Shown here: positions 132-10,475 of the stretch, piece by piece
How the letters are laid out: every line of letters begins with the position of its first letter
Position numbering within the stretch: position 1 is the first letter of the stretch
NCBI GenBank assembly: GCA_012060505.1
Contig: GCA_012060505.1_3027.2
Strand: one strand, 5' to 3'
DNA: 15,812 bases
Origin: a phage
Notes under the pieces: generated by a model
The model's input: the letters and a program-made list of their open reading frames with translations, nothing else
Database searches by the model: none
Told to the model about the DNA's origin: nothing
Position numbers and translations under genes: made by a program

Positions 132-521
132 TTAATCCAAAATATTATTAGGCATTGGTTGAACACTCACAAGTTCTTTAAAGAACTCAGTAGAGTCAGG
201 CAATTTAACCATTTCCGGAGCATGCTTACTGAATTTATGTTTACAATGACGGCATTTATATTCAAGCTCTGGTTTACGCCAGTTAATCAATTGAACTTGT
301 TCAGTACCGCATTCAGGGCAATTAGGAACGTTTTTAGAAGCTCTTTCACGTCGTTCAACCATAGCCATAATAGCATCCCATGATGGAGGTTTAAAATCTA
401 AATCGTCGCAGCCGTGAATCTTTCCACGCATTTTCATATCATCTTCCTCACCAGCCATAATAATTTTAATTAAACTAGAATTACTTGAAGCTGCAATGTC
501 TTCTAATAAACGCTTTTTCAT
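132..521 (-). CDS. Hypothetical 129-aa protein with probable zinc ribbon (CPECG...CRHCKH)
   Basis: ORF track; ATG at 519-521 preceded by GAGGT; ATGA stop-start overlap with upstream gene; paired Cys motifs. Confidence 0.7.
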
Positions 522-1447
522 TTCAATACCTCAATAGCATTACGTAAACCATTTGCTTTTGCATTAAGAGCTTTTAACAATTTGGTGTGTTCTGCAATTT
601 GGGCTTCAACTTCAATCAAACGAGCATTGAGATATTCGCGTTCTTCACTCAGATTATCAGCCTTTTCTGCTTTAGGTTCTTTTACAACTTGCTTATATGT
701 ATTAGGGTTCTTCAGTTTAATTAGAATGCGTGAACTGTACAGCATTGAACCATTATCTTCGGTTTCGTCATACATTTCCACTACGTCCATCATCTCCACC
801 ATCGTGCAGAGTTTATAAGACAACGAACGAATAATTTTGTTGTACTTATTAATTTCTCTAGCTGTCATGGTGCCGAGATTACGTGAGTAATAATAAGGAA
901 CCTGGATATTAATTAATACTGATGAACCACCTGGCTTGTGTGTTACTTCATCAGCAATAACCCAATCCTTAACATGAACTGTATTTGTACGGTCATCGCC
1001 CGCGGTAAATAGTTTACGAGCATGCTTAAAAAGCATATTCACTTGGTCATTGAATTGACAAGCGAATTTATCAGCAAATTTAGTTTCGGGAATGGTAGAT
1101 AACCAATCAGCCAAATGGGTCTTTTTAACATCGTTAACAATAGTAAATTCAACCAAATCGGTTATAGATGTCTCAGATTTAATGAAGCTCGGCTTCATAA
1201 AGTTTTTAATGTTATCACTAGCTACAGTAGAAGATAACAGACGAGAACGTTTAAACCATTGAAGTAAATTGCCTAACGAATAAGAATAAGCGTTTTGAGT
1301 ATCTTTACAAATATGGTTTTCCCATCCAATATAGTCTAAAAAATCACGAAGAATATTATTGATTACTGCTCTGTGCCCGATCTGATAATTACGGTGTTTA
1401 GTAATAAGACTGTCAAAATAATCAATATAATGTTTACGAGTTTTCAT
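518..1447 (-). CDS. Hypothetical 309-aa protein, N-terminus MKTRK, C-terminal coiled coil
   Basis: ORF track; ATG at 1445-1447; heptad-like C-terminus [42 protein letters not shown]. Confidence 0.75.
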   Translation of the reverse strand: MKTRKHYIDYFDSLITKHRNYQIGHRAVINNILRDFLDYIGWENHICKDTQNAYSYSLGNLLQWFKRSRLLSSTVASDNIKNFMKPSFIKSETSITDLVEFTIVNDVKKTHLADWLSTIPETKFADKFACQFNDQVNMLFKHARKLFTAGDDRTNTVHVKDWVIADEVTHKPGGSSVLINIQVPYYYSRNLGTMTAREINKYNKIIRSLSYKLCTMVEMMDVVEMYDETEDNGSMLYSSRILIKLKNPNTYKQVVKEPKAEKADNLSEEREYLNARLIEVEAQIAEHTKLLKALNAKANGLRNAIEVLK

Positions 1448-1469
1448 GTTCTTCTCACTTGGTTAATGA

Positions 1470-1499
1470 TTTATACTCCGAGCCATCCTTGGCTTTAAA
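1470..1499 (-). promoter_or_regulatory. Weak promoter-like element (TATAAAT-type box) with hairpin AGCCA-tcct-TGGCT
   Basis: Minus strand reads ggagTATAAATcat upstream of the 518-1447 start; short inverted repeat at 1481-1494; no good -35. Confidence 0.3.
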
Positions 1500-2501
1500 T
1501 TACTTAATTAACTGTAAAGCTTGTTCAAGACGATCAAGACGATTAACAGATTCTTCCCAAATCCTTTTAGCTTGCTCATATTCTTTCTGTGCTTTATTAG
1601 AAATTTCTAGAACTTCTTTATAAGCTTTTTCTAGTGCAATAACTTCTGGACGAATTTCTACCGATTCAGGTGAATCATCAAGATTATCCATTAGTTCCTC
1701 AAGGGTAGTTTCTTCTTTAGGAGTATTCACAATTTCTTCGCATTTTTGTTGGTAAATTTCTTTATCAGTTAGTGAATAAGCACATTTCACTTCACGAAGA
1801 CTAATTACAATTTTATATCCTTCCCAACCACCAATATTTTTGAAAGGATATGTATGAATACTTTTTACAGTTTCCATACAATCCAAAGCCGTCTCTAATT
1901 GATGAGTTATAGTGCTAGCAATTGAGAAAAATTTATTAATATTCTTTTGGTTAGCTTCTGGTGTAAAAAATTCATAATTCACAAAAATAGCTACTTTATT
2001 TTTATCAAGCTCATATTCTTTTACGATAATCATATCAGAAGCCAAAGGATGAATTTGACGATAATCGCCATAACATAATTTAGAAGCTGATTTTAGAATT
2101 TTTCCTTTAAAAAGTCTGAAATTACTAATCCAACGACGAGTAAAAATATTCTTAGGGTCTTCTTTGATATTAAGATGATAAGAATTAACATCACCGAACC
2201 AATTGTATCCTATTACACCTTTAGTTCGTTTAATTTCTTTCCCAAAATTACCAAGAATATCCCGATTAACTAAATATGAAAGAAGACGAGACCCTTTAAA
2301 GATTATCTTAATATCATCTTTATCTACACGGCTAGAAATTTCACGAACTTCATGAATAAATTTACTGGAAGAAACAATACTTGCATCAATACTGCTGAGC
2401 CATTGATTGATAATAGAAAGAACAGCATTCTGACTAGACATGGGTTTAACTTTATCATCAATAACCCTATTGAATGATTTGATATATTCGTTACGAGTCA
2501 T
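1500..2501 (-). CDS. Hypothetical 334-aa protein, N-terminus MTRNEY, C-terminal coiled coil
   Basis: ORF track frame; start moved to ATG 2499-2501 (SD GAGGAG upstream) because the longer track start overlaps the promoter at 2530-2559. Confidence 0.75.
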   Translation of the reverse strand: MTRNEYIKSFNRVIDDKVKPMSSQNAVLSIINQWLSSIDASIVSSSKFIHEVREISSRVDKDDIKIIFKGSRLLSYLVNRDILGNFGKEIKRTKGVIGYNWFGDVNSYHLNIKEDPKNIFTRRWISNFRLFKGKILKSASKLCYGDYRQIHPLASDMIIVKEYELDKNKVAIFVNYEFFTPEANQKNINKFFSIASTITHQLETALDCMETVKSIHTYPFKNIGGWEGYKIVISLREVKCAYSLTDKEIYQQKCEEIVNTPKEETTLEELMDNLDDSPESVEIRPEVIALEKAYKEVLEISNKAQKEYEQAKRIWEESVNRLDRLEQALQLIK

Positions 2502-2529
2502 ATTAATCTCCTCAGTAGAAAGTAAGAAC

Positions 2530-2559
2530 ATTATACCACATCCTTGTGGCAAAGTAAAC
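2530..2559 (-). promoter_or_regulatory. T4-early-type sigma70 promoter
   Basis: Minus strand: GTTTAC - 18 nt - TATAAT with TGG immediately 5' of the -10 (extended -10); placed between the stop of gene 2559-3578 and the start of gene 1500-2501. Confidence 0.6.
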
Positions 2560-3578
2560 TAGTTCAGTGCATTTAATGCATTGTTCAGTTTAGAACGTTG
2601 CTTTGTCAGATTTTGAACCCTTGACTGAGCTTGTTCTAACGCCTTTTCAGCTTCTAGCACTTCATTGGTCGCTTTAACGAGTTCATCATCTACTGCCTTG
2701 ATAGACTTCTCAATCGCATCCGCGTGCCATTTTTCAACAGGTTTAAGACTCGGATTTTCAACAGGAAGAAAATTCACTTTATTGAATTTCCATGCATCAT
2801 TATTACCTGAACTATACATCCAAAATTTAGGATCGTTTGATAAGTAATTGGATAAATTTAAGTTATCTTGTACTTCCTGCTTTTTCTCTTGCGGGACTTC
2901 GTCCTTTCTCAAAAAATCGTATTTAAATGAAACGATCATATCAAGTTCATATGATGTTGTATCTAACTTAAATCGTTCAAAACGAGGTAAAATCTTAGAC
3001 TGAACAGCGGCAACAACATCCATATACTTAAATGCTTCTGTCAACTGTGATTTAAGGCATTCACAAATTGAAAGAGAATTTTTTGTATTAGGTTTAAAGC
3101 TAATTCGTGCAGTTCTATTATTTTCTTTTAATGGTCTTACTTCCATCTGAAGAGTATAACCATCAAATTTCAGGTTCTTTAAGTTAATGTCAGAACCTTT
3201 TAATCGACTAGCTGTCGACAAAATTTGCTTTAACTGTTTACGGAATAGAGCAATAAATCTCCATTCAATACGATAATGATTGGGATTGAAAAATCCAGAT
3301 GATAAATCAACCTTACTCTGACCAACACCTTGAACAAATAGAGGATTTTTATAATCAATAGTTTTACAGAAATCGGTGAGCTGCTCACGAGCAGTCATTT
3401 GTGTAATATATCCCGCTTTACTAAAATGACGTAACCATTCACTGCTATTCATATATTTAAAGTGAATGGAACTATTAACTCTATCAGGGTCTAAATTATT
3501 TTGGCACAAAAATGTCATAACATTACGGGTATAGCTGGCATTACGAACCATATCTTCAATTTGAGAACGAGTTTTCAT
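2559..3578 (-). CDS. Hypothetical 339-aa protein, N-terminus MKTRS, C-terminal coiled coil
   Basis: ORF track; ATG 3576-3578 with SD AAGGAA; C-terminus LVKATNEVLEAEKALEQAQSRVQNLTKQRSKLNNALNALN. Confidence 0.75.
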   Translation of the reverse strand: MKTRSQIEDMVRNASYTRNVMTFLCQNNLDPDRVNSSIHFKYMNSSEWLRHFSKAGYITQMTAREQLTDFCKTIDYKNPLFVQGVGQSKVDLSSGFFNPNHYRIEWRFIALFRKQLKQILSTASRLKGSDINLKNLKFDGYTLQMEVRPLKENNRTARISFKPNTKNSLSICECLKSQLTEAFKYMDVVAAVQSKILPRFERFKLDTTSYELDMIVSFKYDFLRKDEVPQEKKQEVQDNLNLSNYLSNDPKFWMYSSGNNDAWKFNKVNFLPVENPSLKPVEKWHADAIEKSIKAVDDELVKATNEVLEAEKALEQAQSRVQNLTKQRSKLNNALNALN

Positions 3579-3586
3579 AGTGTTCC

Positions 3587-4474
3587 TTAAGATTTAAGTA
3601 AATCAACAATTTTAATTAACTTTTCACGCTCAGATTTAGCTTTACTACTCAATCCAGATAGTCTAAAGATTTCATCGTCATATTGTTGAATAGAAATATT
3701 CAGCTCTTCAATTTGCTTATTAAAATAATCAATTTGCTCAGAATGTTTTTCGTTACTACGAACTGGTACAGGTTTTGTAGGCAATTTAGTTGAACTGGAT
3801 TCATCCGGGCGATAAATTAAAATACAACTTGAACCAATTGGACATTTTGCACCAGATGAATATTCTAATGTTCCAGATTCTTTTAAAACTTCAAAAGCTA
3901 AACAGAGATGATGACCCATATTGACATAATCAGTAGAGCGAGCTCTGATGTAATAATCATCTCCACGAGTACTAAATTTAAAGCATTTAAGGTCTTCTGT
4001 ATTATTGGTCTTAAAAATCATTTGTTTATCTAGACCTTTAGCTAATCGAGCGCCTAATGCTAATAATCGTCGTTGATTTTCCCACAAATCTGCAATCATT
4101 TGGTCAAATGATAATTTTGGCATTAGTCGACCATAAAGGTCATATCCTTTATTATAATTACGAAGAATTTCACTCGCATTAATACGAGACAATGCTCCAA
4201 TTTTATTAAGGGCTTTCATGATGCGATTAGATAAACTCATTCCAGATCCGTTTGTTCGCTGTAAATGTTTTTCTAATCCAAATCCAATATCAACTTTAAA
4301 TTTATCTAAAATTTCAGCATGAACATCTCTGTCAATAACATTCAAATCCAAAGTTGGGTTAAATCTATGAAAAAATTTATCTGGCTCTCCACGACGAAGT
4401 ACAGTCCATTCATTCAATTTTTTATTAACTAAAGATTTAATTACTGTATTGACATTATTAATTACTACTGACAT
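3587..4474 (-). CDS. Hypothetical 295-aa protein with C-terminal coiled coil
   Basis: Track ORF begins at a TTG; internal ATG at 4472-4474 has a strong SD (GAGGAAAAT) and sits 7 nt after the upstream gene stop, so it is preferred. Confidence 0.7.
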   Translation of the reverse strand: MSVVINNVNTVIKSLVNKKLNEWTVLRRGEPDKFFHRFNPTLDLNVIDRDVHAEILDKFKVDIGFGLEKHLQRTNGSGMSLSNRIMKALNKIGALSRINASEILRNYNKGYDLYGRLMPKLSFDQMIADLWENQRRLLALGARLAKGLDKQMIFKTNNTEDLKCFKFSTRGDDYYIRARSTDYVNMGHHLCLAFEVLKESGTLEYSSGAKCPIGSSCILIYRPDESSSTKLPTKPVPVRSNEKHSEQIDYFNKQIEELNISIQQYDDEIFRLSGLSSKAKSEREKLIKIVDLLKS

Positions 4475-4481
4475 ATTTTCC

Positions 4482-4883
4482 TCACTCAATTTTACCAATT
4501 ATGCGGAATAAGATTGAACAGACTATATAAGTACCACATATAGATTGAACTAATGCCATTCCAAAGAACCAAACAATATTATCAAACCATGTCTGTTTTA
4601 CGTCGAAAGGACGTAAACTTACAGTAATATTATCACCTTTTTCTATTGACGAATACATCTCTGGTGAAATATATTCGCTAAATCTATAACCGTCTTTGAG
4701 TTCATATACAGCAATAAATGATAAACTAGACCCCTTTCCTTGAGTTCCTGTAATGGTATTAACTACAGTAACATCATAATCTTTATAATGCATATAATCA
4801 TTAATTGCGTAATAACCATATGCAATTACTATACATAAACAACATATCAATAAATTCAATCTTTTAATTATCAACTGTTTCAT
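4482..4883 (-). CDS. Predicted membrane protein, 133 aa, hydrophobic segments at both ends
   Basis: ORF track; ATG 4881-4883; hydrophobic stretches LNLLICCLCIVIAYGYY and IVWFFGMALVQSICGTYIVCSILF. Confidence 0.7.
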   Translation of the reverse strand: MKQLIIKRLNLLICCLCIVIAYGYYAINDYMHYKDYDVTVVNTITGTQGKGSSLSFIAVYELKDGYRFSEYISPEMYSSIEKGDNITVSLRPFDVKQTWFDNIVWFFGMALVQSICGTYIVCSILFRIIGKIE

Positions 4884-4912
4884 AATAATCTCAATTAAAA
4901 GGGCTTAGAACC

Positions 4913-4941
4913 ATTATACCATCCTTGGTATAAAGCGGTTA
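4913..4941 (-). promoter_or_regulatory. Promoter-like element with TGG-TATAAT extended -10 but degenerate -35
   Basis: Minus strand reads ccaaggatggTATAATgg upstream of the 4482-4883 start; -35 position does not match GTTTAC. Confidence 0.35.
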
Positions 4942-5466
4942 TGCGAGTACCGTCTTTAACCGTTCTTCAAATTTCCGAAGAGTGTTCTGGCGTTCAGCTC
5001 TTTGCTTTTTGTAAGTTTCAATACGCTCTGAAATGAGAGTGTATCGTTCATTTACTGATTCTTTCATAAAATCAGGAATTTCACGAGAAGCTTTAATCTC
5101 ATCAAATTTATCAATAACAGCTTGCTCTTCAGCAATTAAGTTATCATACATTAAAATATCTTTCTTGATGAACTCAATATCTTCTTGAGTTACACGAGAT
5201 AATTTAGATGCTTTATCCTTTTTGTACTGTTCGTTAGTATCACGAGACCAGTGTAATGTACGATTTTTATTCGTATTTTTGTAAATTTCTACAATACCAA
5301 TTTCATCAATAATAACGATCCAATTCCAACGGGATTTGTAAATTTGTCCTCCATCAACAGTGATTTCACCTCCGATTGAGATGTCATTAAAGAACTTGCT
5401 TTGTGCTTCAGATTTAAATTTACCATCGTTGTAATTTACCAGGTTGAAAATATCTTTAGCATTCAT
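4939..5466 (-). CDS. Hypothetical 175-aa protein, C-terminal coiled coil
   Basis: ORF track frame; start moved to ATG 5464-5466 (SD GGAGG) because the longer track ORF runs through the promoter at 5495-5524. Confidence 0.7.
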   Translation of the reverse strand: MNAKDIFNLVNYNDGKFKSEAQSKFFNDISIGGEITVDGGQIYKSRWNWIVIIDEIGIVEIYKNTNKNRTLHWSRDTNEQYKKDKASKLSRVTQEDIEFIKKDILMYDNLIAEEQAVIDKFDEIKASREIPDFMKESVNERYTLISERIETYKKQRAERQNTLRKFEERLKTVLA

Positions 5467-5494
5467 TTTCTGTTCCTCCGTAGTTGATAGTTGT

Positions 5495-5524
5495 ATAGTA
5501 CCACAGAGGAACAGTCTTGTAAAC
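5495..5524 (-). promoter_or_regulatory. T4-early-type sigma70 promoter
   Basis: Minus strand: GTTTAC - 18 nt - TACTAT, TGG 5' of the -10; shares a 22-nt identical core (5482-5503) with the promoter at 6934-6963. Confidence 0.6.
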
Positions 5525-5526
5525 AA

Positions 5527-6899: not shown

Positions 6900-6933
6900 T
6901 TTATTCTCCAAATCCGTATCAGTTGATAGTTGT

Positions 6934-6963
6934 ATAGTACCATAAAGCTTTATGCTTGTAAAC
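6934..6963 (-). promoter_or_regulatory. T4-early-type sigma70 promoter
   Basis: Minus strand: GTTTAC - 18 nt - TACTAT with TGG extended -10; sits immediately downstream of the terminator at 6986-7013. Confidence 0.6.
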
Positions 6964-6985
6964 AATTTTGTGAAAAAATTTTTGA

Positions 6986-7013
6986 AATAAAAAAAGGGAG
7001 CCCGAAGGCTCCC
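6986..7013 (-). terminator. Intrinsic terminator, 7-bp GC stem with UUCG loop and U-run
   Basis: Minus strand reads GGGAGCC-ttcg-GGCTCCC followed by TTTTTTTATTT, directly after the TGA of gene 7016-8029. Confidence 0.8.
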
Positions 7014-7015
7014 TA

Positions 7016-8029
7016 TCATTTATAATAACTTCGGTGGTTTTCAAGATAGACCTTCTCAAGGAAGTCATCCCAGAAACCCATGTCTACTTTTTGCTGCATA
7101 CCGTTCTTAGAAGCTTCAATAGATGCTGCTTCTACTTGATCGACCACATCTTCCAAAAACTCTTGAACTGTTTTAAATGGATGTTTACCCAACTTCACGT
7201 CGAGAATAAATGGAGCATCTTGAAGTGGATAAACCAAGTCACCAGTTTTGTAAATTTCCAATAGTTGAAGTCCACCACGGCAAGCATGGCTCAGAGCTTT
7301 CCAGTCAATACCTTCATTGGCTTCGGCCTTACGAGCACGTTCACCGTATTCGGCATCAAGTTTATTCAAAGACTGCTTAAGCTCAATAAGAGAAAGCGTT
7401 GTCTGATATTTACGACCCAACACAGTGTAGAACGTTTGTGGACCGGTTTTCTCATGATTATGGAATACCCATTCACAAAACTCGTTTTCAGGGAGTCGGT
7501 GTTTGATATCTTCTACCTTAGTTCGGCGTAAACGATCTGGAATTCCCTCTTGGTAATCAACCCACTGGTCAGGGATTTGATTAACTACTTTCAATACATC
7601 ACGTAATGCGGCCAAACGAGAACCCTTGACACCGTATTTAGAAGCTTGCTTGCGAACATATCCTAAATAGGATTTCATGTTAGTCGTATAAAAACGAGAA
7701 CGATTGTCTTGAATAAACTTCCATACATCAGGCAAATCAGATTTAACTACCAGTTCAAGTGGAGTGTGGAGCATATCCAATGCTACGGTTTCACCATCTG
7801 CTGCTAATTTAAAGAAATATTTAAGACTGTATAGTTCATGGTCAATATCATCTTTGGTGTTTTTAGATGATGTGTTGTTAGTGTTTTTACTCATATGCTC
7901 TTTGACATTTCCGATAAGAATATCGCGAGCAGGAGGAACAAAGATTTCTTTAAAATCTACATCAGATTCTGGAGTAGAAGTTCCATAAAGATGACTACCA
8001 AAATAGCTTTTCATTACTGTTTTCATCAT
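7016..8029 (-). CDS. Pol-beta-superfamily nucleotidyltransferase-fold protein, 337 aa
   Basis: N-terminal motif GSHLYGTSTPESDVDF (G[SG]-x9-13-D-x-D) plus downstream acidic ALD; ATG 8027-8029 overlaps the upstream stop as ATGA. Confidence 0.75.
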   Translation of the reverse strand: MMKTVMKSYFGSHLYGTSTPESDVDFKEIFVPPARDILIGNVKEHMSKNTNNTSSKNTKDDIDHELYSLKYFFKLAADGETVALDMLHTPLELVVKSDLPDVWKFIQDNRSRFYTTNMKSYLGYVRKQASKYGVKGSRLAALRDVLKVVNQIPDQWVDYQEGIPDRLRRTKVEDIKHRLPENEFCEWVFHNHEKTGPQTFYTVLGRKYQTTLSLIELKQSLNKLDAEYGERARKAEANEGIDWKALSHACRGGLQLLEIYKTGDLVYPLQDAPFILDVKLGKHPFKTVQEFLEDVVDQVEAASIEASKNGMQQKVDMGFWDDFLEKVYLENHRSYYK

Positions 8030-8487
8030 TCAGCCTTATATTCAATAACAGGACATACTTTAGCTTTACGAGCTTTTAAAAATTCAACGATAATCGATTT
8101 CTTGGGTTGAATAGGAGGTAAACCTTTATACGCCCTATCAATATTTTCTACGTGTAAAGCATAGTCCTTTTTCCATTTATAATCTTTATATTTTTCACGC
8201 AGTTGTGCAGGAATAACAAATGAACCGATAATAAGTAAAACAACCAAAAGCGCAAGTATAAATGCTGATGGAAGCAAAGTCCATAAACTACCGAAAATAA
8301 GCCAACGTTGTAGGCTTTCTGCACAAATAATTGTTAGCCCTATGAGTATAGTACACCCAAAAATAGAAACGAAAAATGTAGGTATGGCAATAGACCAAAA
8401 ATATGCGCATAGTGTCTTAGGTCGTTGCCATTCATCGTTAAACAATTTGAATAATTTATAGTGCCAAGAGTTTTCATTAATAATCAT
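8026..8487 (-). CDS. Predicted multi-pass membrane protein, 153 aa
   Basis: ORF track; ATG 8485-8487 with SD AAAGGA; three long hydrophobic segments. Confidence 0.7.
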   Translation of the reverse strand: MIINENSWHYKLFKLFNDEWQRPKTLCAYFWSIAIPTFFVSIFGCTILIGLTIICAESLQRWLIFGSLWTLLPSAFILALLVVLLIIGSFVIPAQLREKYKDYKWKKDYALHVENIDRAYKGLPPIQPKKSIIVEFLKARKAKVCPVIEYKAE

Positions 8488-8489
8488 AA

Positions 8490-9011
8490 TTATCCTTTCA
8501 TTGAAGGCGTAACGGTTGTTAAATACTTAATCATAGCTTCAGCTTCTGATTTTGATAGTGAAATTTCTTCACCGTTTTGGCGAATAGAAACAAAATCTGG
8601 ATGACGATCACCACCAGCTTTTAAAACACACATATAAGTATCAGCTTCGCCTTCAATATTTGAAATGATTGAAGCAGTTCCACACGAATGTGGTTTTTGA
8701 TAAATCAATACAGCTTTTCTTCCACCATTTGACTGTTCATAGGCTTTTAATACATCAAACAAATCAGTTCTTTTATCAATAGCTAAAATGTTATTTTCAT
8801 CTTCAATGTTAAATCCTTCGGATACTTCATAAAGCGTTACCCATAAATCGCCAATATCAATAACAGCATTTACTTTTCCACGGCTTTCAAGAGTATGACA
8901 AATTTTCTTGATTTCGTCATAACTCATTTTAATAATATCATCTCCTTGACTAAGGAAGATGTCATTTTTAAATTCAACACGAATTAAACCGCTTCCACTT
9001 GAAATAAACAT
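8490..9011 (-). CDS. Hypothetical 173-aa protein, paralog of the next gene
   Basis: ORF track; ATG 9009-9011 with SD GAGGAAAT; C-terminus EAEAMIKYLTTVTPSMKG resembles the C-terminus of the 9018-9560 product. Confidence 0.7.
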   Translation of the reverse strand: MFISSGSGLIRVEFKNDIFLSQGDDIIKMSYDEIKKICHTLESRGKVNAVIDIGDLWVTLYEVSEGFNIEDENNILAIDKRTDLFDVLKAYEQSNGGRKAVLIYQKPHSCGTASIISNIEGEADTYMCVLKAGGDRHPDFVSIRQNGEEISLSKSEAEAMIKYLTTVTPSMKG

Positions 9012-9017
9012 ATTTCC

Positions 9018-9560
9018 TCACTTTGAAATCATAGTTGGAATTACAGAATCAAGATAAGTCTTTAGTGCAATAGCTTCGTCTTTGGTAAATGTGACAATAT
9101 GTGCTCGAGAATCATCAATTTGGCGAACAAGTACGACATCGCCATCTTCATAAGAAGTCTTGACATCCAAAGTCGTAGTATAATTTGCAGCTACTGGATT
9201 AATAATGCTAGCACCGCGATCTTTAGCCCATTGAAGTTTAGCCTTTTCGGGTGTTTCGACTGTTTCAGATTCTAAGAATTCTTTCACCTTGACAACGAAT
9301 GTTGCCCAATTGCTGATAGAAAGACACATAAATTCAGTTTCAATATTACCGCCGTAAAGGCCACGATAAAAACGAACTTGGAGGTCGTCTGTAATATTAG
9401 TTACACCGGTAACTCCTGAGGGAGCATAAGATAAAATCGCAGCCAGTTCCATAGGAAGAATAGTAATACTATCGTCTTCCTGCGTCAGAACGTATACATT
9501 ACCACGTTTTTCGATAACCAGGTCACCGAACAAATCAGTTGTTTCAATTACAGCTTTCAT
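9018..9560 (-). CDS. Hypothetical 180-aa protein, paralog of the previous gene
   Basis: Track ORF begins at a TTG; ATG at 9558-9560 is used instead; C-terminus DEAIALKTYLDSVIPTMISK. Confidence 0.65.
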   Translation of the reverse strand: MKAVIETTDLFGDLVIEKRGNVYVLTQEDDSITILPMELAAILSYAPSGVTGVTNITDDLQVRFYRGLYGGNIETEFMCLSISNWATFVVKVKEFLESETVETPEKAKLQWAKDRGASIINPVAANYTTTLDVKTSYEDGDVVLVRQIDDSRAHIVTFTKDEAIALKTYLDSVIPTMISK

Positions 9561-9561
9561 A

Positions 9562-9747
9562 TTATTTACCAATTAAAGTTTCAATATAAGAATCAAGATT
9601 TACTTTAGCTTCTTCCATAAGAGTTTTGTATTTAATCTTGTTGGCATGTCCGGAGAAAGCTGATTCATCAATAACTGTTGCTGTATGAACAGCTTTGCTA
9701 TATGTTTCAATTAATTCTCTTAATTTAAAAGCCTGCTCACTTGTCAT
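9562..9747 (-). CDS. Small helical protein, 61 aa, member of a ~60-aa paralog family
   Basis: ATG 9745-9747 follows SD AGGAG by 6 nt; N-terminus MTSEQAFKLRELIETYSKAV. Confidence 0.6.
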   Translation of the reverse strand: MTSEQAFKLRELIETYSKAVHTATVIDESAFSGHANKIKYKTLMEEAKVNLDSYIETLIGK

Positions 9748-9851
9748 CACATACTCCTCTGAATCATATCAATAATGTTATTCACCAGATTATAAGTAAA
9801 CATTGGGTAATTATATTGAATCATCACATACACAACAAACAAAACTTTCAT
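9747..9851 (-). CDS. Possible 34-aa hydrophobic micro-protein (below ORF-track threshold)
   Basis: Manual translation MKVLFVVYVMIQYNYPMFTYNLVNNIIDMIQRSM; SD AAGGAG upstream; lies just downstream of promoter 9880-9909; stop overlaps the next start. Confidence 0.35.
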   Translation of the reverse strand: MKVLFVVYVMIQYNYPMFTYNLVNNIIDMIQRSM

Positions 9852-10271: not shown

Positions 10272-10475
10272 TTAAACTCTCGTATTATGATCAATAATTT
10301 CATCAAGAAACATATCTAACGCTTCTAAAGCATTATCCACTTTAGTTTCAAAGTCTTTAATGCCTTTATTCGAAATACCCGATGAATACCAAGCAAAGTC
10401 AATCAGCTCTTCATCTGCTTTGCGAATTGAAGCCACTAATTCCTTGATTTTATCCGCTTGCTCTACACTAATCAT
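10272..10475 (-). CDS. Small helical protein, 67 aa, paralog-family member
   Basis: ORF track frame; start taken at ATG 10473-10475 (TAATG overlap with upstream stop); N-terminus [18 protein letters not shown]. Confidence 0.6.
   Translation of the reverse strand: MISVEQADKIKELVASIRKADEELIDFAWYSSGISNKGIKDFETKVDNALEALDMFLDEIIDHNTRV

Follow-up and report, generated by a model that had tools for sequence, protein, structure and literature searches.

Tandem paralogues and candidate anti-defence genes in the nrdC.3 to nrdC.8 region of a T4-like phage

When neighbouring phage genes encode proteins that end alike, are the proteins related over the rest of their length as well, and what might they do for the phage? 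The question is raised by a 15,812-nucleotide (nt) stretch of phage DNA (contig GCA_012060505.1_3027.2 of GenBank assembly GCA_012060505.1; "the window" below means this whole stretch), in which five open reading frames (ORFs) lie on the minus strand at 518–1447, 1500–2501, 2559–3578, 3587–4474 and 4939–5466. An original prediction, made from the sequence alone, described their products as unrelated or only distantly related N-terminal portions joined to a C-terminal coiled coil, suggested a diversifying family, for example of oligomerising effectors, and assigned them to no named family. The ORFs are real, with correct coordinates and lengths, and the annotation of phage RB14 overlays them gene for gene at 96.6% DNA identity as nrdC.3 (309 amino acids, aa), nrdC.4 (333 aa), nrdC.5 (339 aa), nrdC.6 (295 aa) and nrdC.8 (175 aa). 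The 5.2-kb stretch that holds them is 95–99% identical to many Tequatrovirus (T4-like) genomes, and the source of the window is a T4-like coliphage (Tequatrovirus). The five can be named after all, as nrdC.x ORFs of T4 covered by the Pfam family DUF7235 and the more recent PF26897 and PF26899. We argue below that four of the five are better understood as full-length relatives than as different proteins with a common tail, and we consider what this implies for their function.

Relationships and layout of the nrdC.3 to nrdC.6 proteins

When the five proteins were compared in pairs by BLASTP, no match was significant, and profiles were needed to relate them. Profile comparison joins nrdC.3 through nrdC.6 and leaves nrdC.8 apart. 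PHROGs already places nrdC.3 and nrdC.4 in a single family (phrog_1435, matched by the window proteins at E 8e-115 and 1e-163, respectively), and hhalign aligns the nrdC.3 and nrdC.4 families colinearly over their full length at 99% probability. The nrdC.4 and nrdC.5 families are also aligned colinearly and at full length, at 91% probability (E 1.3e-7). At the level of sequence, nrdC.3, nrdC.4 and nrdC.5 are thus established as paralogues. The connection to nrdC.6 runs through a bridging group of four distant members, made up of two metagenomic proteins, a 324-aa protein of Jiaodavirus and a 332-aa protein of Karamvirus. In hhalign this group scores 99.8% against the nrdC.3–nrdC.5 profile (E 1e-26) and 97% against that of nrdC.6 (E 1.4e-10), with nrdC.8 and four unrelated window proteins, the negative controls, at no more than 0.1%. 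Because a mixed profile could bridge two unrelated families, a single sequence, a Mosigvirus orthologue of nrdC.6, was also run against the nrdC.3–nrdC.5 profile, and it matches over its full length at 79% (E 2e-6). We regard nrdC.6 as a probable distant member of the superfamily.

A comparison of predicted folds may point the same way. The AlphaFold2 model of nrdC.5, the sole superfamily member modelled here, consists of an alpha/beta domain (residues 1–218), a disordered segment (230–276) and a single helix (280–338), with a mean predicted local distance difference test score (pLDDT) of 69.9. Foldseek matches it to the BFVD model of nrdC.6 from phage JS10 with E 1.5e-4, probability 1.0 and template-modelling scores of 0.31–0.37; the root-mean-square deviation of the superposition is high, as a flexible linker would give. 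In BFVD the nrdC.5 model has 11 matches at E ≤ 1e-3, including uncharacterised proteins of about 220–375 residues from T4-like phages of Enterobacter, Klebsiella, Erwinia, Acinetobacter, Yersinia, Pectobacterium, Citrobacter and Aeromonas. An alignment of 19 representatives contains shared, colinear motifs, namely F-x-x-S-R-x-L-S...L-x-x-F-G, F...I-L...A-S-[KR]-L..G-D and L..Q-L..A-L..M..V, together with a proline ahead of the helix and a terminal L..AL..LK.

nrdC.3 to nrdC.6 have one layout in common. An alpha/beta domain of some 220 residues at the N-terminus is followed by a disordered linker, which is variable, and then by an amphipathic heptad helix, some 40–60 residues long, with L..AL..LK at its end. 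Between the window paralogues, identity is 13–24% in the N-terminal part and 12–22% in the helix, so the helix does not stand out from the rest as a more conserved common module. The picture of one coil attached to divergent N-domains gives way here to full-length paralogy, and the N-terminal parts, which had looked unrelated or nearly so, are homologous according to the full-length profile matches and the fold search. nrdC.8 is a separate, unrelated family. It has no profile relation to nrdC.3–nrdC.6 (hhalign 0.1–0.4%), its secondary structure is laid out differently and its C-terminus comprises two helices; it does not demonstrably share the architecture that had been attributed to all five proteins.

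The original prediction had itself kept a fallback in which there is no family at all, only a chance or convergent resemblance of five helices rich in lysine and glutamate on unrelated N-domains. The lack of any significant pairwise BLASTP match would agree with this, as would the fact that Pfam keeps three separate families, and for nrdC.8 the statement is true. For nrdC.3–nrdC.5, however, it is largely refuted by the colinear full-length profile–profile matches with their clean negative controls, by the merging of nrdC.3 with nrdC.4 in PHROGs, by the structural match of nrdC.5 to nrdC.6, and by the shared motifs and terminal L..AL..LK. We consider it very unlikely as an account of the locus.

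Existing libraries hold the members as orthologue groups. Pfam and PHROGs cover these groups separately, apart from the merger in phrog_1435. The window nrdC.5 protein matches DUF7235 (PF23882) over model positions 1–307 of 307 with 406.5 bits against a gathering threshold of 30 (E 1e-121); it is 95.6% identical to T4 nrdC.5, the anti-Dsr1 protein, and is its orthologue, with the same position, the same length and conserved synteny. PF26897 is present on all nrdC.4 homologues and also on a fusion protein that contains the C-terminal half of nrdC.3. nrdC.6 matches phrog_2257 (E 8e-153), and a precomputed PF26899 label is present on 105 of 105 of its homologues. nrdC.8 matches phrog_2274 and is the orthologue of Bas37_0203, with which it shares 174 of 175 residues; bas37_0203 occupies the nrdC.8 locus position in the Bas37 record. 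Searches of Pfam and NCBIfam domains and of PDB sequences, with the profile and with single proteins, returned only DUF7235 above noise. No catalytic motif was found, and the conserved positions are chiefly hydrophobic or structural.

To assess the C-terminal helices, we compared the 3.5-residue periodicity of family-averaged hydrophobicity with that of 2000 shuffles. The observed value was reached in 0 of 2000 shuffles for nrdC.4 and again in 0 of 2000 for nrdC.5, and the periodicity is also significant in nrdC.6 (p = 0.012) and nrdC.3 (p = 0.023); in the last helix of nrdC.8 it is not (p = 0.28). In a single register running through nrdC.3–nrdC.6, the a/d positions are 83–94% hydrophobic, versus 19–33% at the other positions. 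The nrdC.5 helix (2565–2741, minus strand; residues 280–338) contains at least seven heptads, has a core that is 94% hydrophobic and is a single helix in the AlphaFold2 model. The nrdC.3 helix (521–646, minus; residues 268–309) aligns with it and keeps an unbroken a/d register with an 83% hydrophobic core, and the nrdC.4 helix lies at 1503–1649 (minus; residues 285–333). The helical region of nrdC.6 (3590–3739, minus; residues 246–295) has a kink at SGLSS and contains one glycine. In nrdC.8, a single-sequence AlphaFold2 model places two shorter helices at residues 94–126 and 132–174 (4945–5187, minus) with pLDDT 75–90 there; the beta-rich front of the protein is poorly defined (N-domain pLDDT ~50).

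A long uninterrupted helix with a/d periodicity is therefore found in nrdC.4 and nrdC.5, to a moderate degree in nrdC.3 and nrdC.6, and not in nrdC.8, which leaves the proposal of five C-terminal coiled coils strong for two proteins, moderate for two and weak for nrdC.8. Among the products of the 33 window genes, nrdC.4 and nrdC.5 alone have last 42 residues with p ≤ 0.001, no proline or glycine and at least 50% E, K, Q, R or A; on the same single-sequence test nrdC.6 (p = 0.015), nrdC.8 (p = 0.06) and nrdC.3 (p = 0.07) follow. A cruder 28-residue heptad score, set against whole-protein shuffles, had its maximum in nrdC.4 at residues 186–213 and not at the C-terminus, and was replaced by the periodicity test. 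The similar starts that had been noticed in three of the proteins are borne out as MKTR, MTR and MKTR in nrdC.3, nrdC.4 and nrdC.5, and an alignment of 42 homologues of these three shows no variation at T3 or R4.

The nrdC.6 gene differs in the T4 reference. NC_000866 (5023–5909) annotates a product of 275 aa, which compared with the window changes frame near residue 258 and thereby loses its C-terminal helix. In the HIDEN-SEQ supplement T4 nrdC.6 is annotated with 891 nt, and the short version in NC_000866 reflects either a difference between strains or a mistake in the reference.

Distribution and divergence of the superfamily

When 1.84 billion representatives were searched exhaustively in HMMER with the nrdC.3–nrdC.5 profile, only 19 clusters at 50% identity matched, with no distant relatives outside T-even-like phages. 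Every named homologue belongs to a T-even-like phage or to a bacterial assembly in which such phage DNA is evidently present. Across the Tevenvirinae genera sampled, the superfamily adjoins nrdC in one to four copies per genome. Tequatrovirus has nrdC.3, nrdC.4, nrdC.5 and nrdC.6; Mosigvirus has nrdC.3, nrdC.5 and nrdC.6; Gaprivervirus and Dhakavirus have nrdC.4, nrdC.5 and nrdC.6; and Karamvirus and Jiaodavirus have one member each, upstream of nrdC. Content also varies within Tequatrovirus, in which phage LYE-01 is without nrdC.4 and Ec_YwIITB1 has nrdC.5 split into two pieces. A further case (P0119) is an in-frame nrdC.5::nrdC.3 fusion that joins nrdC.5 residues ~147–275 to nrdC.3 residues ~138–309, with nrdC.4 deleted. 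Its junction falls at a short shared FN..VN motif, and it looks like the result of recombination between paralogues. This record of variable copy number, losses, a fusion and a broken copy across T4-like genomes upholds the earlier suggestion of a diversifying family in a plastic early region. We set aside one apparent instance of module swapping: a 173-aa protein (P0236) has 120 N-terminal residues that are unmatched in the phage collection and 53 C-terminal residues that are 100% identical to an nrdC.5 helix allele, but it lies on an 803-bp metagenome contig (L013, ENA) that may be an assembly chimera.

nrdC.3 exists in two old allele classes, and the window and T4 alleles are 60% identical, with the divergence concentrated at residues ~61–260 and the ends conserved. 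Ratios of non-synonymous to synonymous substitution (dN/dS; Nei–Gojobori, window versus T4) are 0.33 for nrdC.3 and 0.31 for nrdC.4, compared with 0.03–0.19 for neighbouring genes, and the highest windowed value, about 0.93, falls at residues 161–200 of nrdC.3. Among orthologues, in every group, conservation is higher in the helix than in the N-terminal part. No repeats linking the paralogues were found at the DNA level, from which we conclude that the duplications are old.

Published and proposed anti-defence functions, and alternative readings

Two of the five genes have published anti-defence roles. A T4 clone that had lost nrdC.5 was unable to infect ECOR17, but could do so again once dsr1 was deleted from the host; MG1655 was protected by cloned dsr1, and nrdC.5 by itself, supplied on a plasmid, restored plating on Dsr1 cells (PMC9391042). 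Dsr1 is a SIR2 defence, and the counter-activity was shown for the T4 allele of nrdC.5 (PMC9391042), from which the product of window 2559–3578 differs in nothing substantive. Bas37_0203, which shares the locus of the window nrdC.8, inhibits Druantia type III (bioRxiv 10.1101/2025.11.20.689424); it is unrelated to nrdC.3–nrdC.6 and is without one long heptad helix. The suggestion that these genes encode effectors against different host targets therefore holds for nrdC.5 and for the nrdC.8 orthologue, with the qualification that nrdC.8 lies outside the family. Inhibitors are also encoded nearby, in that the neighbouring gene nrdC.1 inhibits Septu and gp49.2, a few genes off, inhibits OLD (PMC13096335). 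The genes nrdC.2–nrdC.11 are listed as non-essential in both T4 and Bas37 in a preprint supplement (bioRxiv 10.1101/2025.11.20.689424).

The locus has promoter-like signals of early expression, and nrdC.5 is termed an early gene (PMC9391042). Early-type promoter sequences (GTTTAC, a spacer of about 17 nt, and TGGTATAAT or TACTAT) lie upstream of nrdC.4, nrdC.8 and nrdC.10. The one upstream of nrdC.4 (2530–2558, minus) consists of TTTACT, 17 nt and TATAAT with a TG extension, in the context GTTTAC...TGGTATAAT. The one upstream of nrdC.8 (5495–5523, minus) lies inside a 45-nt direct repeat (5482–5526 and 6921–6965, 82% identity) that comprises the early-type promoter and 5' leader of nrdC.8 and of nrdC.10. 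Related −10 regions are found upstream of nrdC.3 and nrdC.7, the latter promoter-like with ...GGTATAAT. The genes nrdC.7, nrdC.6 and nrdC.5 follow one another in this order with gaps of 7 and 8 nt, and are probably co-transcribed. RegB cleaves moderately at the Shine–Dalgarno GGAG of nrdC.8 (PMC1702504). In the window at 6995–7014 (minus), between nrdC.11 and nrdC.10 and just upstream of the nrdC.10 promoter, there is a terminator-like GC-rich hairpin of 8 bp (6 of them G–C) with a TTCG loop, followed by a T-run.

The explanation that we favour, with some confidence, is that nrdC.3–nrdC.8 form an early-expressed, non-essential anti-defence island with an expanded paralogue family, whose members, nrdC.3, nrdC.4, nrdC.5 and in all probability nrdC.6, are old tandem copies of a single protein restricted to the Tevenvirinae. 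The region is part of the accessory "nrdC to mobD" block of T4-like phages. Each paralogue would be made immediately after infection and would use its alpha/beta domain, which diverges fast, to bind a host immune protein of its own; we infer an action by binding because conserved catalytic-type residues and enzyme domains are missing from nrdC.3–nrdC.6. The heptad helix may drive self-association of each paralogue. Avidity towards oligomeric defence proteins would increase as a result, and the copies would be kept from mixing by helices that have diverged between paralogues. On this scheme nrdC.3, nrdC.4 and nrdC.6 are predicted to inhibit further defence systems.

Known systems offer partial parallels. 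Like nrdC.5, DSAD1 is a phage-encoded protein that neutralises a defence based on a SIR2 NADase, here DSR2, and it is reported to bind DSR2 and so counter activation by a virion protein. It belongs to a different phage group and has a different target protein, binding by nrdC.5 is only a presumption, and the two are likened by function alone. The IPI–IPIII genes and the dmd–tifA–adfA island resemble the nrdC.x genes in being clustered, non-essential, early or injected, directed at different host targets and readily lost or amplified (PMC9391042). The genes of the tifA island are presented as distinct inhibitors and not as paralogues (PMC9391042), whereas nrdC.3–nrdC.6 are full-length paralogues on one scaffold.

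Several points weigh against the anti-defence island as we describe it. nrdC.8 spoils the picture of five genes alike, and the direct profile comparison of nrdC.3–nrdC.5 with nrdC.6 reaches only 40–66%, which makes that link good and not conclusive. Confidence in the nrdC.5 model is medium (pLDDT 69.9), and a monomer AlphaFold2 model cannot distinguish a coiled coil from a lone helix. In the Nei–Gojobori comparison of the window with T4, dN/dS is below 1 in all genes and windows, and positive selection is not demonstrated. Finally, the available parts of the published screens report no phenotype for nrdC.3, nrdC.4 or nrdC.6.

This last point also serves a different reading, in which the proteins are general host take-over or regulatory factors that serve the usual physiology of early infection and any anti-defence effect is indirect, through the timing or level of the phage trigger, through nicotinamide adenine dinucleotide (NAD+) metabolism or through proteolysis. 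The source papers give no mechanism for nrdC.5 or nrdC.8, and the genes sit among the nucleotide-metabolism genes nrdC, nrdD and tk, both of which would be compatible with such a role. We nevertheless think it unlikely, since all of the genes are dispensable on K-12, no catalytic motif or known-domain match was found, and the family is confined to T-even-like phages (the 19 clusters described above), where its variable copy number and free gene loss are typical of arms-race accessory genes and not of core physiology. Another alternative places the proteins inside the virion, with the MKT... N-terminus as a capsid-targeting sequence of the T4 IPI–IPIII type and injection together with the DNA. 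Injected anti-defence proteins exist, for example IPI*. The targeting sequence of the T4 internal proteins is MKTYQEFIAE, with a protease site of the form (L/I)-x-E near residue 10, and the starts MKTRKHYIDYF, MTRNEYIKSF and MKTRSQIEDM are loosely like it. No such prohead-protease site is present near residue 10 in MKTRKHYIDYFDSLI, MTRNEYIKSFNRVI or MKTRSQIEDMVRNAS, however, and the idea was dropped on account of its absence from the nrdC.3, nrdC.4 and nrdC.5 N-termini. The early-type promoters and the activity of nrdC.5 when supplied from a host plasmid (PMC9391042) likewise speak against packaging, which we judge to be extremely unlikely.

A third alternative keeps the anti-defence role and changes the mechanism, such that a tail-terminator-like alpha/beta domain would act as a structural decoy that soaks up pattern-recognition sensors (Dsr1 and Avs-type tetratricopeptide repeat (TPR) sensors) and would not block effector domains. 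According to a 2026 preprint, phage major capsid proteins are recognised by the Dsr1 TPR sensor, which Avs7 also has, and bacterial sensors recognise conserved virion folds, tail terminators included (PMC12803255). Foldseek lists tail completion or terminator proteins among BFVD matches to the nrdC.5 model at probability 0.5–0.9, and lambda gpU in the PDB at probability 0.72 (E 0.049). The gpU match is not significant, though, and no sequence similarity accompanies it. No PDB match reaches E ≤ 1e-3, and the highest-ranking ones are to ARPC2, S6 and mitoribosomal proteins; sandwiches of the ribosomal S6-like and RNA polymerase alpha-like kinds have scores almost as good, sequence identity is 5–13%, and the model itself is of medium confidence. 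Moreover, the reported trigger of Dsr1 is a capsid protein and not a terminator, and no capsid protein is among the fold matches. The nrdC.x genes also differ from tail terminators in being early and non-structural, and their products have in addition a helical part at the N-terminus, together with a linker and a coiled coil. We therefore treat the terminator similarity, which comes from a predicted model, as a grey-zone lead that may motivate the decoy hypothesis and does not support it alone, and we consider decoys of this kind quite unlikely. A more elaborate version is also doubtful, in which nrdC.3–nrdC.6 would be multivalent sensor blockers or decoys, each carrying a duplicated and retuned terminator-like domain on a coiled-coil stalk against a different sensor clade. 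If this were true, one candidate set of targets would be the TPR sensor common to Dsr1, Avs7 and related effectors, and the helices would have diverged against cross-pairing.

The anti-defence island, then, remains our preferred explanation. T4 is the best-studied phage, and most of its roughly 150 accessory genes are without a function. The T4 ORFs themselves, the anti-defence roles of nrdC.5 and nrdC.8, and anti-defence accessory genes in phages as a kind of system are already known. What we did not find in the papers and family libraries consulted is the treatment of nrdC.3–nrdC.6 as one superfamily with a common layout, and the prediction for nrdC.3, nrdC.4 and nrdC.6. These three become specific, cheap-to-test candidates instead of "hypothetical proteins", because they have a scaffold and origin in common with the anti-Dsr1 protein and lie among the inhibitors nrdC.1, gp49.2, nrdC.5 and nrdC.8. 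The family would also provide a natural system for studying how a duplicated inhibitor scaffold acquires new targets, and by what means paralogues with coiled coils escape mutual interference.

Neighbouring genes and annotation

Between nrdC.6 and nrdC.8 lies nrdC.7 (4482–4883, minus), a membrane protein that matches phrog_2547 and is not a superfamily member. Further along the window come nrdC.9, nrdC.10 (an AAA-type ATPase), nrdC.11 (a nucleotidyltransferase), tk and regB. In many GenBank genomes, homologues of nrdC.2–nrdC.11 carry the label "thioredoxin", apparently carried over from the name of the neighbouring nrdC. None of the nrdC.x proteins checked matches a thioredoxin domain, and genes nrdC.2–nrdC.11 should not be given that name.

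nrdC.2 (132–521) encodes 129 aa with a zinc-ribbon motif (CPEC...CRHC), of which the T4 allele matches only residues 1–99, at 78% identity, and the coding sequence is 315 nt in T4 versus 390 nt in the window. Its allele classes, at ~98%, 78% and 60% identity, form a mosaic like that of nrdC.3. After nrdC.11, where T4 has the homing-endonuclease gene mobD, the window encodes a 153-aa membrane protein (8026–8487). RB14 has a seg-like ORF between nrdC.9 and nrdC.10; the window phage has no homing-endonuclease gene there. Two adjacent ORFs of about 175 aa (8490–9011 and 9018–9560, minus) are tandem paralogues with 29% identity over 173 residues (E 5e-7). They share the ending ...EA.A...YL..V.P[ST]M and are counterparts of mobD.1-like genes in T4 relatives. 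Two ORFs of about 60 aa (9562–9750 and 10272–10475, minus) are 35% identical (E 9e-5), and by eye further small helical ORFs at 9.5–10.7 kb and 12.3–12.65 kb are alike, which may represent a paralogue family of small proteins.

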